Shown here: in pieces, positions 35,162 to 52,776 of the stretch
Numbering within the stretch: position 1 is the stretch's first letter
Layout: each line of letters starts with the position of its first letter
Assembly: GCA_040876265.1 (NCBI GenBank)
Contig: JBBDPN010000002.1
Span: forward strand, 100,818 to 164,817
Direction: 5' to 3'
DNA from: Candidatus Woykebacteria bacterium
GTDB taxonomy: Bacteria > Patescibacteriota > Microgenomatia > Woykebacterales > RBG-16-39-9b
DNA: 64,000 nt
Position numbers and translations under genes: made by a program
Notes under the pieces: model-generated
Told to the model about the DNA's origin: nothing
Databases searched by the model: none
The model's input: the letters and a program-made list of their open reading frames with translations, nothing else

Positions 35162-35185
35162 GATAGGCAAGTGTACTTGCCTATC
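35162..35185. promoter_or_regulatory. perfect 11-bp inverted repeat GATAGGCAAGT-gt-ACTTGCCTATC, candidate operator ~50 nt upstream of the pilin-like gene array
   Basis: seen directly in sequence; located in 320-nt intergenic region before 35236. Confidence 0.4.
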
Positions 35186-35235
35186 GTTTGACACCCACCG
35201 ACCCACCAAGCTAAAATTAAACTAATCAACCTGCC

Positions 35236-36003
35236 ATGAAAAAAATCTCTCTACCGAGCGTAACTTTCCTAATCTTATCATTGATTGGCCTTATCTTTCT
35301 TCATCAGAAGGTGGCGGCCCAAGAAGTTTTCGTCGGATCGCTTATTAATGATAATAAAACGCTATCCAGCATATCATTTACAGGTCTGAAGCCTGGTCAC
35401 TACTACATAGTTGAGCTGACTGGAAGATGGGGTGAAAGAGACTATTTGGAAGGAACAGACGATAAGCAACTCCACCTGGCCAGTAGTAGTGGAGTAGTCA
35501 AGATAGGGTCGATATGTGAAAACGGAGAAGGTGACAGGGACAACTGCGGCGAGGAGTTCCATTCAGGTGATTACAATATGAGAGTACTTGAGTTTAATGG
35601 CACTCCAACTAGCCTTCGAATTGATGATCAGTGGGATCAGATAGGAGCTGTAGTAACCGCTTATTCCTTTAATGTGGACGAGGATGGCAACGTTGGCGAC
35701 GTTGTTGAGTCGCCAGGTGGTGCTGTAATTGGTGATCCAGACTTAACTCGCGATCCAAATCCAAACGCCAGAGAGGCCGCAAATACATTTCTTGGCTTTG
35801 GCCTTGGGACGGCGGGTGGGATAGCATTCCTGCTGATGGTGTTTGGAGCGTATCGGTTGATATTTGCCGCTGGAAATCCAGAGAGCATTCAGCAGGGTAG
35901 AGAAGTGATCACCGCTGCTATTGCCGGCCTGCTGGTTATTGTCTTTGCGGTGTTTATCCTGCGCTTCCTTGGCTACACTATTCTGAACATTGGAGGTCTC
36001 TGA
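35236..36003 (+). CDS. exported protein with C-terminal VirB2/TrbC-like pilin module
   Basis: signal peptide; C-terminal TM-GNPESIQQGREVITAAIAGLLVIVFA-TM motif shared with the four downstream paralogs. Confidence 0.55.
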   Translation: MKKISLPSVTFLILSLIGLIFLHQKVAAQEVFVGSLINDNKTLSSISFTGLKPGHYYIVELTGRWGERDYLEGTDDKQLHLASSSGVVKIGSICENGEGDRDNCGEEFHSGDYNMRVLEFNGTPTSLRIDDQWDQIGAVVTAYSFNVDEDGNVGDVVESPGGAVIGDPDLTRDPNPNAREAANTFLGFGLGTAGGIAFLLMVFGAYRLIFAAGNPESIQQGREVITAAIAGLLVIVFAVFILRFLGYTILNIGGL

Positions 36004-36609
36004 ATGGACGACTGGTTTGGAGTTAGTGGTGGTGCGAATTTTTCAAACATAGGTGAGGCTATTTCTTTACTTCTACTGCCTATCTTCACTTTGGCGGGGA
36101 TGATCGCCCTTCTTTTTGTTATGTGGGGAGGGCTACGCTATATGCTTTCCCGTGGCGATCCAAAGGCTGCCGAGGCGGCCCGCGGTACTTTGACCAGCGC
36201 GATAATTGGGCTTCTGATAGTGCTTTTTTCAGCGGCTATTTTTGTTATTTTTGCAGACATCCTAAGGATTGATATTTTCGTCGGTGCTGTACCGACAGCG
36301 CAAGCAGCTGTATCTATCGGTGACACGGTACGGTTGGGTGGTGGCCTTCGAATAGGGTTCTTTCAGAACATCGGCCAAGTGTTTTCCGGATTTGTCTTGT
36401 TAGCACTGGCGGCCGCAGCCCTGATTTTTCTGGGGATGATGATCTGGGGTGGTATTCGCTACCTAAATGCTGGTGGCAACCCGGAAAATGCTGAATCTGC
36501 CCGTAGCACCCTCACCAGCGCCGGAATCGGTCTATTGATTATTGTAGCTGCTTTCCTGATAATAGAACTAGCAACTAACGTGATCGGGCTAGCCAGCATC
36601 TTTAATTAA
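36004..36609 (+). CDS. tandem-duplicated VirB2/TrbC-like pilin protein (two pilin modules)
   Basis: two copies of TM-G(D/N)P(K/E)..(A/S)AR.TLTSA.IGLLI-TM. Confidence 0.55.
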   Translation: MDDWFGVSGGANFSNIGEAISLLLLPIFTLAGMIALLFVMWGGLRYMLSRGDPKAAEAARGTLTSAIIGLLIVLFSAAIFVIFADILRIDIFVGAVPTAQAAVSIGDTVRLGGGLRIGFFQNIGQVFSGFVLLALAAAALIFLGMMIWGGIRYLNAGGNPENAESARSTLTSAGIGLLIIVAAFLIIELATNVIGLASIFN

Positions 36610-50057: not shown

Positions 50058-50062
50058 TTACC

Positions 50063-50953
50063 ATGGATAAACTCGGCAACGTATCATCAACTCAAGAGCA
50101 TCTGGACATAGAGGACGTTAGAGACGACGTTGTTCTCCTGAAAAATGGAAGCGCAACGGCTGTTCTACAAACAACCGCTGTGAATTTTGATTTACTTTCT
50201 GAAACCGAGCAAGACGCTATGATATTTGCTTTTGCGGCCACGCTTAATTCCCTTACCTATCCAATCCAAATTTTAATCAGAACCAAAAGGATGGATATAT
50301 CCAATTACCTGCTACGGGTCCAGGAAGCCGGAGCTCGGACTCATAATCCTAATCTTGCTGTTCAGATAGAAAAATACGAGAATTTCATCAAAGAGCTTGT
50401 TTCAAGAAACCAAGTACTTGATAAACGTTTCTACGTGGCTGTCCCTTACATCGGGATCGACCTTTCCCAAGTAACTTCAAATATAACCGGCCTTTTCAAA
50501 AAACGAAGCCCTAACATCAGTAGGGGGGCTTTGTTGGAAAGGGCCAAGGTTAATCTAGAACCTAAGGTGGACCACCTTATCAAACAATTTAGTCGAATCG
50601 GCGTAAAGACCGTCCGGCTCAATACCGAAGAACTCGTCGAGCTTTTTTACGACCTATACAACCCCGACGTCGCCAGAGAACAAAAGGCCGCCCTCGAACC
50701 AGCCGAGTACAGTACGCCAATTGTAGAGCCGTCGCTAGCCCCCTCTTACGAAGAGGTCCCAATCGAGGATAATACTTCAGAAACCGCGCCGGAGCCGGAG
50801 ATTACAACCGACCAAGGCAGTCCTACCGCAGTCCAACCGGCTCAGCCGTCAACCGGGGAGCAAGAGAGCGGACAAGTACGGGAGGGGCAGGCTGGAATTA
50901 AACCTGCTGCAGAAACAGCTGACGTGCCCAACACAAGTGGGGAACAAAAATGA
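50063..50953 (+). CDS. VirB4/TraE-family N-terminal domain protein (first part of a split VirB4-like ATPase)
   Basis: DIEDVRDDVVLLKNGSATAVLQTTAVNFDLLSETEQDAMIFAFAATLNSLTYPIQI resembles VirB4/TcpF N-terminal region; stop overlaps next start (ATGA). Confidence 0.45.
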   Translation: MDKLGNVSSTQEHLDIEDVRDDVVLLKNGSATAVLQTTAVNFDLLSETEQDAMIFAFAATLNSLTYPIQILIRTKRMDISNYLLRVQEAGARTHNPNLAVQIEKYENFIKELVSRNQVLDKRFYVAVPYIGIDLSQVTSNITGLFKKRSPNISRGALLERAKVNLEPKVDHLIKQFSRIGVKTVRLNTEELVELFYDLYNPDVAREQKAALEPAEYSTPIVEPSLAPSYEEVPIEDNTSETAPEPEITTDQGSPTAVQPAQPSTGEQESGQVREGQAGIKPAAETADVPNTSGEQK

Positions 50954-52776
50954 AATTATCAAGTTTTTTTCCACAAAAAAAGAGGCCGTCGCTTTCCGCC
51001 CAAGAGGCTAAGGAACAGCAGACACGTGACCAAGTCACCCAATACTTAGGTCGGGGTATGGTGGACGTAAAAGATGTAATCGCCCCACCAGCGATAGAAA
51101 TAGATTTTGACCATGTCAAAGTTGGTAATATATATTACCGAACTCTATTTGTTTCCGGTTACCCAAGGTTTGTCGGGGCAAACTGGCTAGCACCCCTCAT
51201 AAACTTTGATCACACGCTAGATATATCTTTCTACTATTACCCTGCTGAAACGAAAGGCATTTTGGATGATTTACGCCGCAAGACCGCTGAAATGGAAGCG
51301 ACGATAGAATCTGACCTACAGGCCGGCAGGGTACTGGACCCAGCCATAAACACAGCTCTCGAGGACGCTAGGTCTCTTCAAGAGCAGCTTGCTACCGGGA
51401 TAGAGAGGTTTTTCCAGTTTACCTTTTATATTAAAATTCCGGCCCCAACTTTAGAAGAACTCGACTATATTACCAAGCAAGTCGAAGCCGCGGCCGGATC
51501 CCTGCTGATCATCACCAAGCACGCTACCCTGCAGCAAGAGGCGGCACTGCAATCAACCCTACCGCTTTTTGTCGATAAACTCTTTGCCATCCGAAATATG
51601 GATACCACCTCCCTGGCTACAACATTCCCCTTCACTAGCTCAGAACTGACTGCAAACGAAGGTGTCCTCTACGGAATAAATGAGCACAACGGCTCTCTGG
51701 TGATTTTTGATCGTTTTACCCTTGAAAATGCTAATAGCGTCGTCTTCGCCAAAAGTGGTGCTGGTAAAAGCTACATGGTCAAACTCGAAGCCTTACGGGC
51801 GTTGATGTTCGGAACGGAAATAATTGTTATAGATCCCGAAAACGAATATAAAGAGCTCTCTGATACTATCGGAGGTGAGTATATAAACTTTGCCCAAAGT
51901 CGTCCATCACGGATAAACCCCTTTGACCTCTCTGGGGTGTATGAGGAAGGTGAAAACGAGCTGGGCCTAAAAATACTTTCCCTGCACTCGTTGCTAAGAA
52001 TAATGCTTGGTAGTCTTTCGCCAAATGAGGATGCGATCCTTGATAGAGCTTTGATAAACACGTATAAACTTGCTGGTATCACTCCTGATCCTGCCACCCA
52101 AACAAAAAAAGCTCCTCTTCTTGGAGACCTCTACAACGTGTTGGAAAATATGGCGGAGCCTCAAGCCAGGGATATGGCCGGGCGCTTGGAAAAATTCATC
52201 CGTGGTTCATTAAGTGGCATTTTCGACCAAGAAAGCACTATTGATATAAAAAACACCTTTACCATTTTTTCCATCGCTGACCTACAAGATGAGCTCCGCC
52301 CGGTAGCCATGTTTATTATCCTCGATTATGTGTGGACGCGGATAAAAAAGGATCGGAAAAAACGGTTGTTAATTGTTGATGAGGCCTGGTATTTGATGAA
52401 GTACCAAGATTCCGCTTCGTTCATGTACTCAATTGCAAAACGGGCCCGAAAATACAATCTCGGCTTGACCACCATAACTCAGGACGTTGAGGACTTCCTT
52501 GGCTCAGATTACGGTAAGGCAATTGTCACCAACTCCTCTGTACAAATCTTGCTGAAACAAAGCGCGGCTGCTATTGCAGAGGTAGTTGAGGTATTCTACC
52601 TTTCCGAGGGAGAAAAGAATTTGTTGCTTGCGGCGGATGTGGGCGAGGGTCTATTTTTTGCCGGACCAAATCACGTCGCCATCCGGGTCCAAGCGTCTCC
52701 AGATGAACACGCTATTCTTACTGCTGGTGCGAAGGGGTCCTCGCCGCAACCATCGATTGATAATCCTCAGGAGTGA
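50950..52776 (+). CDS. VirB4/TraE-family type IV secretion ATPase (AAA_10, ATPase part)
   Basis: Walker A FAKSGAGKSYMV, Walker B LLIVDEAWYLM, downstream ITQDVEDF motif. Confidence 0.75.
   Translation: MKLSSFFPQKKRPSLSAQEAKEQQTRDQVTQYLGRGMVDVKDVIAPPAIEIDFDHVKVGNIYYRTLFVSGYPRFVGANWLAPLINFDHTLDISFYYYPAETKGILDDLRRKTAEMEATIESDLQAGRVLDPAINTALEDARSLQEQLATGIERFFQFTFYIKIPAPTLEELDYITKQVEAAAGSLLIITKHATLQQEAALQSTLPLFVDKLFAIRNMDTTSLATTFPFTSSELTANEGVLYGINEHNGSLVIFDRFTLENANSVVFAKSGAGKSYMVKLEALRALMFGTEIIVIDPENEYKELSDTIGGEYINFAQSRPSRINPFDLSGVYEEGENELGLKILSLHSLLRIMLGSLSPNEDAILDRALINTYKLAGITPDPATQTKKAPLLGDLYNVLENMAEPQARDMAGRLEKFIRGSLSGIFDQESTIDIKNTFTIFSIADLQDELRPVAMFIILDYVWTRIKKDRKKRLLIVDEAWYLMKYQDSASFMYSIAKRARKYNLGLTTITQDVEDFLGSDYGKAIVTNSSVQILLKQSAAAIAEVVEVFYLSEGEKNLLLAADVGEGLFFAGPNHVAIRVQASPDEHAILTAGAKGSSPQPSIDNPQE

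Follow-up and report, generated by a model that had tools for sequence, protein, structure and literature searches.

The stretch of DNA analysed here (64 kb, hereafter the window, the part of the genome that was analysed) comes from Candidatus Woykebacteria, which belongs to the Candidate Phyla Radiation (CPR)/Patescibacteria. Positions 35162-52776 carry the genes of what is very probably a chromosomal, non-conjugative type IV secretion system (T4SS), a machine derived from the MPF-FATA class, equipped with an array of VirB2-like pilins and adjoining the replication origin. Within this locus we found two genes with an unusually high G+C content at third codon positions (GC3), encoding an orphan 959-aa protein and a 286-aa zinc-ribbon protein, and a regulatory leader in front of the larger gene. 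The gene order is SpoIID, pilins 1-5, a 324-aa protein, an M23 peptidase, a VirB6-like protein, the large gene, prgI, a coiled-coil gene, trsD, virB4 and recF-dnaN-dnaA. Three of the locus proteins are hypothetical proteins of a Candidatus Woykebacteria metagenome-assembled genome (MAG) in NCBI (tags WD187_03765 to WD187_03780). The loci of relatives are labelled L002, L003 etc., and identities are given relative to the window proteins. The genes of the machine are as follows.

35236-36003, plus strand: pilin 1, 255 aa (PF18895, 26.9 bits, cut-off 26.6)
36004-36609, plus strand: pilin 2, 201 aa, two tandem pilin domains (PF18895, 67.6 bits, two stretches)
36612-36920, plus strand: pilin 3, 102 aa (PF18895, 27.5 bits)
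36993-37376, plus strand: pilin 4, 127 aa, with a Sec-type signal peptide (ALA-AE; PF18895, 28.3 bits)
37402-37776, plus strand: pilin 5, 124 aa, nearest to classical TrbC/VirB2 (PF18895, 47.7 bits)
37837-38811, minus strand: membrane-anchored extracellular protein, 324 aa, with an N-terminal hydrophobic anchor
38808-40013, minus strand: cell-wall hydrolase, 401 aa (PF01551 Peptidase_M23, 45.1 bits; PF01345 DUF11, 32.2 bits)
40147-42078, plus strand: putative VirB6-like polytopic membrane protein, 643 aa, whose Gly/Pro-rich C-terminal tail is disordered
47283-48089, plus strand: PrgI/VirB3-like membrane protein, 268 aa, shortened to 261 aa if the alternative start at 47304 is used (PF12666, 44.4 bits, cut-off 27)
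48090-50057, plus strand: Pro-rich coiled-coil protein, 655 aa, with a C-terminal CarboxypepD_reg-like beta-sandwich (PF13620, 28.2 bits, cut-off 32.3)
50063-50953, plus strand: TrsD/TraC-like protein, 296 aa, homologue of the VirB4 N-terminal domain
50950-52776, plus strand: VirB4 ATPase, 608 aa, of the monoderm CD1110/MPF-FATA type, with Walker A motif AKSGAGKS

A preliminary description of this region had listed a palindromic operator, five tandem VirB2/TrbC-like pilin paralogues, a membrane-anchored extracellular protein, an M23 peptidase with Lys/Ala repeats, a VirB6-like polytopic protein, a coiled-coil protein with a C-terminal Ig-like domain and a VirB4-family ATPase, and all of these features do lie where it placed them, the Ig-like domain being the CarboxypepD_reg-like beta-sandwich. 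It overlooked the PrgI/VirB3 and TrsD/TraC-like genes, a ParE toxin-antitoxin pair and, above all, the two GC3-rich genes and the leader, which are the most unusual part of the locus. The gene set that it called unusual is the standard set for the phylum.

The VirB4 ATPase scores 396.4 bits against NF045971 (cut-off 325) and 93.6 bits against PF19044, and its C-terminal domain matches the structure of Thermoanaerobacter VirB4 (PDB entry 4AG5) with an E-value of 1.5e-53. The TrsD-like protein encoded just upstream matches TrsD (NF041427, 34 bits for a cut-off of 200) and the N-terminal region family NF045975 (36 bits), both far below the cut-offs; it carries a precomputed PF26593 TraC-like assignment and is 57-65% identical in relatives. 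The coiled-coil gene starts at the base right after the prgI stop codon, and the C-terminal domain of its product keeps 55-71% identity in relatives. Curtissbacteria-like loci have the PrgI domain inside a protein of 519-552 aa (L016, 128-1687; L031, 718-2376; L034, 7320-8894), and no separate coiled-coil gene was seen there. Comparison of the sequences suggests that the prgI and coiled-coil genes could be the split, or the fusion, of one functional unit.

Taken alone, the 643-aa polytopic protein has no match in Pfam, NCBIfam or the PDB sequences. Its family comprises 22 proteins at E <= 0.001, its own included, the named ones being from Woykebacteria; none of the 22 aligned proteins matches PF04610, PrgH or any other Pfam family, and a PDB profile search returned only noise (E of about 1-2). 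An AlphaFold (AF2) model was built on this 22-member family, with a predicted local distance difference test score (pLDDT) of about 85 for the core (residues 220-480) and a mean pLDDT of 61. Searched against the PDB with Foldseek, this model finds TrwI/VirB6 chains from the R388 T4SS in each of its top five matches (E 0.024-0.2, TM-score 0.35-0.48), the best having an E-value of 0.024, a probability of 1.00 and a TM-score of 0.47 on the target, which gives moderate support to the VirB6-like assignment. Such a structure-based call is of some value, because the survey of Patescibacteria T4SS by Quinonero-Coronel et al. 2025 (PMC12102498) found VirB6 to be ‘scarce’ in Microgenomatia and suspected extreme divergence.

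On the opposite strand, the cell-wall hydrolase consists of a Lys/Ala-rich N-terminus, a transmembrane segment, a DUF11 beta-sandwich and a Peptidase_M23 domain. M23 domains occur in VirB1-like proteins of Patescibacteria (PMC12102498), and the M23/DUF11 hydrolase can by analogy be regarded as the functional counterpart of VirB1. Its gene overlaps that of the 324-aa protein by 4 nt, pointing to translational coupling. The 324-aa protein matches nothing in Pfam, NCBIfam or the PDB profiles and has three cluster representatives among 5.8 billion clusters (its own and two at 43-44% identity); L002 has an orthologue of it in synteny, at 40% identity. Its place in the locus and its topology would be compatible with a VirB8-like component or one that spans the wall.

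The pilin array lies 13 kb upstream of virB4. Its five open reading frames (ORFs), which contain six PF18895 domains, all score above the Pfam gathering score, and the six domains share a VirB2-like hairpin made of two hydrophobic helices joined by a GG(D/N)P...AR..IT loop. In pilin 1 this hairpin is C-terminal, behind a signal peptide and an extracellular N-domain of about 160 aa; pilin 5 reaches 25.7 bits against PF04956 TrbC/VirB2, below the cut-off of 27.9. The paralogues of the window and of L002 are one-to-one orthologous, with identities of 35, 53, 64, 69 and 62% for pilins 1 to 5, respectively; since each has its own orthologue, the array is old and every member has been kept. Tandem divergent pilin paralogues in a single T4SS locus are also known from the VirB2 arrays of Bartonella and Anaplasma, from which the window array differs by this paralogue-by-paralogue orthology (35-69%). 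The sequences therefore suggest fixed, non-redundant structural roles for the pilins rather than antigenic variation.

Two features precede the array:

35162-35185, no strand: perfect palindrome GATAGGCAAGT-GT-ACTTGCCTATC, with 11-nt arms and a 2-nt spacer
35188-35217, plus strand: promoter-like site, TTGACA-18-TAAAAT, sigma-70-like, with 11 of 12 consensus matches

The palindrome occurs once in the window, was reproduced in none of 100 shuffles and ends 2 nt ahead of the -35 hexamer of the pilin operon promoter. As a palindrome it stands, with its perfect arms. As a conserved operator it is not supported: its sequence is in none of the related loci fetched, including the pilin promoter region of L002, the sole relative for which this region was read and in which a TTGACA is likewise found upstream of the array. 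The operator role proposed in the preliminary description stays a guess because the palindrome is missing there, and we regard the palindrome as a possible candidate for a regulator binding site.

Downstream of virB4, the locus runs into the replication genes:

52767-53852: recF, directly downstream of virB4
53845-54957: dnaN, downstream of recF
55074-56498: dnaA, downstream of dnaN

The minimum of the cumulative GC skew, at about 56 kb, lies beside dnaA, and the locus therefore abuts the replication origin; a chromosomal position near dnaA/dnaN is typical of the T4SS of Microgenomatia and Paceibacteria (PMC12102498). The same gene order is seen in L002/L003, L006-L008, L010-L015 and L042, so that the genes are not scattered in relatives, and the 110 nearest loci retrieved are Patescibacteria MAGs or metagenome contigs with the same synteny, which would fit a VirB4 of the monophyletic Patescibacteria clade. 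In Curtissbacteria-like loci the large gene is on the other side of virB4, adjoining the VirB6-like gene. Several public MAGs with a locus of the Patescibacteria type (L010, L014, L015, L031, L012 and L038) carry titles such as ‘uncultured Gammaproteobacteria’, ‘Candidatus Nanoarchaeia archaeon’ or ‘Ktedonobacteraceae’, which probably reflects wrongly labelled bins or contaminating contigs.

We may wonder whether the locus is the remnant, now functionless, of an integrative conjugative element from which relaxase, coupling protein and integrase have disappeared, given core genes homologous to those of monoderm conjugation and, within the locus, a ParE toxin-antitoxin pair and compositionally odd genes. 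The conservation of the locus makes such a decayed element scarcely credible: all of its ORFs are intact, the order beside recF-dnaN-dnaA is kept across lineages whose VirB4 proteins are 71-82% identical, the T4SS genes share the GC3 of the host genome, each pilin paralogue is individually conserved and a homologous system is essential in Southlakia.

A Walker A motif is found, among the ORFs of at least 120 aa in the 64 kb, only in VirB4, DnaA and RecF, which supports the absence of VirD4 from the window. No coupling ATPase (T4CP, VirD4/TcpA), oriT or integrase was found in the window, nor any relaxase family among the ORFs scanned, some window ORFs lying outside those scans. The preliminary description had noted the lack of VirD4 and of a relaxase in the region and had seen in it a pared-down or divergent T4SS rather than a classical conjugative element, a view that is supported by the literature, which describes Patescibacteria T4SS with the same features. 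Its suggestion of an apparatus for cell contact by an episymbiont also agrees with the affiliation of the organism to the CPR/Patescibacteria and with the finding that a homologous cluster and its pilin array are essential for the epibiotic growth of Southlakia epibionticum (PMC12857230). In reviews, the role of the Patescibacteria T4SS is called ‘completely unknown’, with effector delivery or the uptake of host material as guesses (PMC11665869, PMC12857230).

The lack of a T4CP or relaxase in the window would also suit a T4SS-derived uptake system, like Helicobacter ComB or archaeal Ced, through whose pilus the symbiont would draw in nucleic acid or other macromolecules of the host. VirB4 has a weak similarity to the Ced import ATPases CedB and CedD (42 and 30 bits), uptake has been raised as a possibility for Saccharibacteria (PMC11665869), and a preprint of 2026 describes feeding on host RNA as well as pilus-like tubes where the host is contacted. 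However, the Ced matches are far below the cut-offs and the best VirB4 matches are to conjugative export systems (CD1110, 396 bits; TraC, 177 bits). The sequence gives no sign of the direction of transport, and uptake, which we hold to be rather unlikely, would be compatible with the identification of the machine as a non-conjugative T4SS.

This T4SS is of a kind described in papers from 2023-2025 and is not new in itself. With the systems of Southlakia epibionticum ML1 and Nanosynbacter lyticus TM7x it has in common a monoderm-type VirB4, PrgI/VirB3, TrsD-like and putative VirB6-like proteins, a peptidase replacing VirB1, tandem divergent VirB2-like pilins, the lack of a relaxase or T4CP nearby and a chromosomal position beside dnaA/dnaN. 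The window locus differs from them in being of the Microgenomatia type, with a putative VirB6-like fold recovered by structure, and in adding the lineage-specific 324-aa and coiled-coil/beta-sandwich proteins as well as the hypervariable GC3-rich gene pair with its putative leader-peptide attenuator. The MPF-FATA conjugation systems (CTn2 CD1110 of C. difficile, pCF10 Prg/Pcf and pGO1 Trs) likewise have a CD1110-family VirB4, PrgI, a TrsD-like protein and a cell-wall hydrolase and have no outer-membrane core complex. Unlike them, the window locus is without relaxase, T4CP, oriT or PrgB-type adhesin, it has VirB2-like pilins, which the Gram-positive systems are without, and it is fixed on the chromosome beside oriC, whereas theirs are on a mobile element. 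With the diderm VirB/D4 systems (A. tumefaciens VirB and R388 Trw) the locus shares the VirB2/TrbC hairpin topology of the pilins (PF04956 just under threshold for pilin 5) and the putative VirB6/TrwI-like fold of the 643-aa protein, but it is without VirB5, VirB7, VirB9, VirB10, VirB11 and VirD4, and the envelope is monoderm.

By analogy with characterised T4SSs, we infer that VirB4, anchored to the membrane through the VirB3-like PrgI together with the TrsD-like protein, would power assembly and transport, with the VirB6-like polytopic protein as membrane channel or base of the pilus. The M23/DUF11 hydrolase would open the peptidoglycan, the six pilin domains would build an extracellular tube or fibre towards the host cell, and the 324-aa anchored protein and the coiled-coil/beta-sandwich protein may be lineage-specific structural parts. 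Several points weigh against this picture. The TrsD and CarboxypepD_reg matches are below the curated cut-offs, and the TrsD call is weaker than the PrgI call; the VirB6-like assignment comes from a medium-confidence model (mean pLDDT 61) with weak Foldseek E-values (0.02-0.2); and no VirB8-like protein was identified in the locus, the 324-aa candidate being without a sequence or PDB-profile match. A T4CP or a relaxase could sit elsewhere in the genome, beyond the 64 kb. Finally, both the pilus of PF18895 proteins and the function proposed for the Woykebacteria lineage are predictions from the genes and by analogy.

Between the VirB6-like gene and prgI, on the minus strand, lies the GC3-rich pair:

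42141-45020, minus strand: orphan soluble protein, 959 aa, GC3 0.70, between the VirB6-like gene and prgI
46304-47164, minus strand: zinc-ribbon protein, 286 aa (or 268 aa), GC3 0.69, with an N-terminal CxxC...CxxC, a coiled coil and an acidic tail

Across the remaining 55 ORFs of the window, GC3 is 0.417 +/- 0.048, which puts the two genes at z-scores of about +5.8 to +5.9. The shift is strongest in the two-fold codon families, with frequencies in the GC3-rich and in the other genes, respectively, of 0.75 and 0.29 for TTC, 0.76 and 0.28 for ATC, 0.88 and 0.44 for AAC, 0.92 and 0.54 for TAC, 0.76 and 0.34 for AAG, and 0.73 and 0.38 for CAG, and much smaller in the four-fold families. Because it is concentrated in two-fold families, it is unlike the plain GC mutational bias of a donor, which we therefore disfavour. 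Codon bias due to high expression was also rejected, the gene of ribosomal protein L25 and others being at normal GC3. The excess recurs in relatives: the large gene is GC3-rich in all 12 lineages with a VirB4 at least 71% identical (+0.08 to +0.31, mean +0.20); in loci with a VirB4 at most 70% identical, the large neighbouring gene has an ordinary GC3 (mean deviation 0.00, n = 17).

The 959-aa protein has no signal peptide and no transmembrane segment, and its C-terminal half is confidently predicted to be helical. It has no match in Pfam, NCBIfam, PHROGs or the PDB sequences, and Foldseek against the PDB gave only noise (best E 0.38). Its 20 homologues among 1.84 billion representative proteins occupy, wherever the context is available, the same slot of the same locus. 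The gene is the fastest-evolving of the locus: in L042, VirB4 is 82% identical to that of the window, PrgI 58%, the TrsD-like protein 57% and the VirB6-like protein 40%, and the large protein aligns over only 179 residues with 26% identity (E 5e-4). According to BLAST the slot holds two families, A and B, linked by hhalign with an E-value of 0.006, and the L042 protein weakly matches the profiles of both. Non-homologous replacement at this slot was consequently rejected as the simplest reading, and we treat A and B as one hyper-divergent family because the L042 protein bridges them. In the scan of genome collections with the 959-aa family, one alignment (A2) was too diverse and another (A3) gave no relative, and VirB4 was used for a second scan. 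The 286-aa protein has weak orthologues in L002/L003 (21% identity, E 1e-5), and in L042 the zinc ribbon alone aligns; these orthologues are likewise GC3-rich. It accompanies the 959-aa gene as its partner, possibly as a chaperone or adaptor.

Two further GC3-rich genes were observed outside the pair. In L002 (6947-7789, minus strand), with an equivalent in L003 (9485-10351, minus strand), a gene between the VirB6-like and M23 genes has a GC3 of 0.59-0.60, against 0.35-0.40 in its neighbours, and encodes a lipoprotein-like product of 280-288 aa with an LLTAC lipobox; it has no counterpart in the window. The other is a window gene far from the T4SS locus, between oxidoreductase and glycosyltransferase genes (2888-3454, minus strand; GC3 0.75, z +6.9; TTC 0.95, ATC 0.77). 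Its product is a Trp-rich multi-pass membrane protein of 188 aa that has no significant family match, only DUF7937 (E 0.015, far below the cut-off). This suggests that the genome has a small class of GC3-rich genes.

The space between the two genes of the pair also holds an insertion:

45647-46142, plus strand: toxin-antitoxin pair, a 73-aa putative antitoxin and a 97-aa ParE-like toxin (PF15781, 54 bits)

The two toxin-antitoxin genes overlap by 20 nt and have a normal GC3 (0.46); they are inserted between the 286-aa gene and the leader, and are absent at this spot in L003.

A GC3 of 0.70 against 0.42, on the strand opposite to that of the flanking genes and beside a toxin-antitoxin pair, raises the question of whether the pair is of foreign origin, as an island, or marks a recombination hot spot with its GC3 raised by GC-biased gene conversion, and has no part in secretion. 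The distant third gene at 2888-3454 would fit, the extreme divergence would fit frequent exchange, and some related Patescibacteria have a GC3 of about 0.6 genome-wide and are potential donors. However, 10-12 lineages retain the slot, the orientation, the promoter and the predicted attenuator, a divergence over which a one-off transfer would have ameliorated; no homologue is found outside the small group in the 1.84 billion representatives, nor in GC-rich related loci; and the codon shift is concentrated in two-fold codons instead of being uniform. We consider the island or hot spot improbable. Moreover, a GC3 anomaly that persists when nearly all sequence similarity has gone is not expected from simple horizontal transfer.

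The regulatory features upstream of the 959-aa gene are the following:

45250-45416, minus strand: regulatory leader of the 959-aa gene, within the 626 nt upstream of the gene
45416-45388, minus strand: leader promoter, with TTGACA (45416-45411), a 17-nt spacer and a TG-extended TATACT (45393-45388)
45379-45326, minus strand: leader ORF of 17 codons, MKNKLIDLDIFAQSPPG followed by a stop
45343-45333, minus strand: segment 1, CAAAGCCCGCC, inside the end of the leader ORF
45300-45289, minus strand: segment 2, GGTGGGCTTTGG, which can pair with segment 1 or segment 3
45269-45259, minus strand: segment 3, CCAGAGCCCAC, followed by a U-run (45258-45250)

This architecture and its promoter are conserved in ten lineages, spanning both families of the large protein. 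The leader peptides have 17-19 residues and most end in SPPG, SPPxG, EPPPx or GPPR; eight of the ten end in PPx or PxG/PPPx, L012 and L013 deviating, with the prolines encoded within segment 1 and no run of a single amino acid. Across lineages this RNA segment is read in two frames (QSPP or PEPP), yet the stop codon of the ORF always falls 2-12 nt after segment 1, so that what is conserved is the RNA switch, along with the way in which it overlaps a putatively translated ORF. In all nine sequences folded, the helix between segments 1 and 2 forms when segment 3 is absent, and the terminator between segments 2 and 3 forms when segment 1 is masked. The duplexes of segments 1 and 2 have energies between -15.5 and -24.7 kcal/mol and, in eight of the nine sequences, are stronger than in shuffles (p <= 0.007); the element of the window folds with z = -3.7. 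Positions 5-8 of segment 2 show three-way compensatory changes.

Pairs were counted on a gapless alignment of the three segments, and covariation was measured in the ten lineages. For helix 1:2, 74.7% of the cells are paired (26-51% with the 3' partner slid by 1-3 columns), and for helix 2:3, 86.0% (31-53% when slid likewise), percentages which are inflated by the extraction of the segments via their predicted duplexes. The covariation score is 0.341 for helix 1:2, compared with 0.176 in shuffles, and 0.412 for helix 2:3, compared with 0.221, and in both cases none of 500 shuffles reaches the observed value.

Leader-peptide attenuators are known from the trp, his and leu operons, and leaders with proline codons from mgtL and mgtP of Salmonella. 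The window leader has in common with them a promoter, a short ORF, mutually exclusive hairpins and a predicted intrinsic terminator with its U-run, as well as an ORF end lying over the first pairing segment and proline codons at what would be the decisive position. It differs in having three segments rather than four and no run of one regulatory amino acid, in belonging to no Rfam family and in controlling, presumably, an orphan gene of a secretion locus instead of a biosynthetic operon. The most economical reading of the sequences is thus a three-segment, translation-coupled transcription attenuator, whose polarity we infer as follows. A ribosome arriving at the proline codons and the stop codon, where it probably pauses, would mask segment 1, leaving segment 2 to pair with segment 3 and form the terminator; stalling on the prolines should favour termination, because they lie inside segment 1. 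When ribosomes lag, segment 1 would pair with segment 2 first, allowing read-through into a further 230-440 nt of structured leader with a perfect AGGAGG Shine-Dalgarno sequence at its end. A full-text search of the literature retrieved no paper about such a leader-peptide attenuator in Patescibacteria.

The attenuator has its own difficulties, in addition to the inflated pair counts. The element seems to be lacking in L014, L050 and L056 (an automated search of L014, L050, L056 and L060 gave nothing), the leader ORF is without a run of one regulatory codon, and several leaders are without a clear Shine-Dalgarno sequence. With a strong promoter of its own, an efficient-looking terminator and a further 230-440 nt of structured RNA before the large gene, the short ORF and hairpin could be an independent gene for a small peptide or a small RNA, ending at its own terminator. 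Against such a gene, which seems to us fairly unlikely, segment 2 can pair with either of the other two segments, and compensatory changes involve all three; the ORF uses two reading frames across lineages and still ends 2-12 nt after segment 1; and the element always lies directly upstream of the large gene, with no promoter identified between the two, though a TTGACA-like block is present past the terminator in some lineages.

Past the terminator, the 5' untranslated region (45021-45249, minus strand, and its equivalents in L003, L004, L005 and L042; 230-440 nt) has conserved hairpins, for instance CCCTCC-AAAG-AGGGGG and CTCCCCCTGTGT...ACACAGGGTGGAG. In the RNAalifold consensus of the five sequences a CCUCC stretch pairs with the AGGAGG Shine-Dalgarno sequence, with a weak, unfavourable covariation term, and this is a hint only. 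The region may provide a second, translational layer of control.

What could such a separately regulated pair be for? Its hypervariability, the lack of a Sec signal, the dedicated multi-layer regulation and the fixed place in the locus would be those of a tightly controlled, host-facing T4SS substrate with its chaperone, or of an accessory or specificity module; this is unproven. The 959-aa protein might be the first candidate for a translocated effector of a Patescibacterial T4SS, a proposal that we make tentatively and with more doubt than conviction: it is drawn from this context, and neither a secretion signal nor an enzymatic domain was found in the protein. A bolder view takes the GC3-rich module for cargo of the machine that is built for the host, its codon usage being opposite to that of the symbiont and near that expected of GC-rich hosts. 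In one version, a message or DNA would be delivered through the T4SS and translated in the host; in another, poor translation in the symbiont would be intended, and the attenuator would permit expression in a particular translational state only. Such a view would connect with the proposal that the codon usage of Patescibacteria is ‘complementary’ to that of their hosts (bioRxiv 10.64898/2026.06.21.733656), but we consider the view itself very improbable.

The surroundings of the locus are housekeeping (SpoIID, sigma-70, DnaG, tRNAs, tmRNA, RecF, DnaN, DnaA, YidC and LeuRS). Six tRNA genes (four Ser and two Arg) and the tmRNA gene (29463-29826) are clustered at 25096-29826 on the minus strand, with a separate tRNA-Asn at 14112-14186, an ordinary housekeeping set. 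Two sizeable ORFs, at 30333-32291 (minus strand, 652 aa) and 18753-19679 (plus strand, 308 aa), have no Pfam match at E <= 0.001.

Three elements of the locus appear to be new: the GC3-rich orphan 959-aa gene with its 286-aa zinc-ribbon partner inside a T4SS locus; the recurrence of the GC3 excess in 12 of 12 related lineages despite extreme divergence of the protein; and, ahead of the 959-aa gene, a conserved promoter, leader ORF and putative antiterminator/terminator switch. Codon usage, GC content and coiled coils did not turn up in term searches of the survey of Patescibacteria T4SS (PMC12102498).

The T4SS of Patescibacteria is essential in the one species tested and is without a proposed substrate. 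The locus described here offers a structure-based VirB6 candidate for Microgenomatia and a conserved gene slot whose soluble, hypervariable and separately regulated protein has the traits one would look for in a substrate or specificity factor facing the host, and the predicted attenuator would tie the expression of this protein to the translational state of the symbiont. The persistence of a GC3 excess while the protein sequence is nearly erased is hard to explain by ordinary horizontal transfer and bears on how codon usage is shaped in these parasites. The GC3-rich module, with its predicted attenuator, is a testable candidate for what this essential and unexplained machine handles, and it is this that lifts the locus above the routine.

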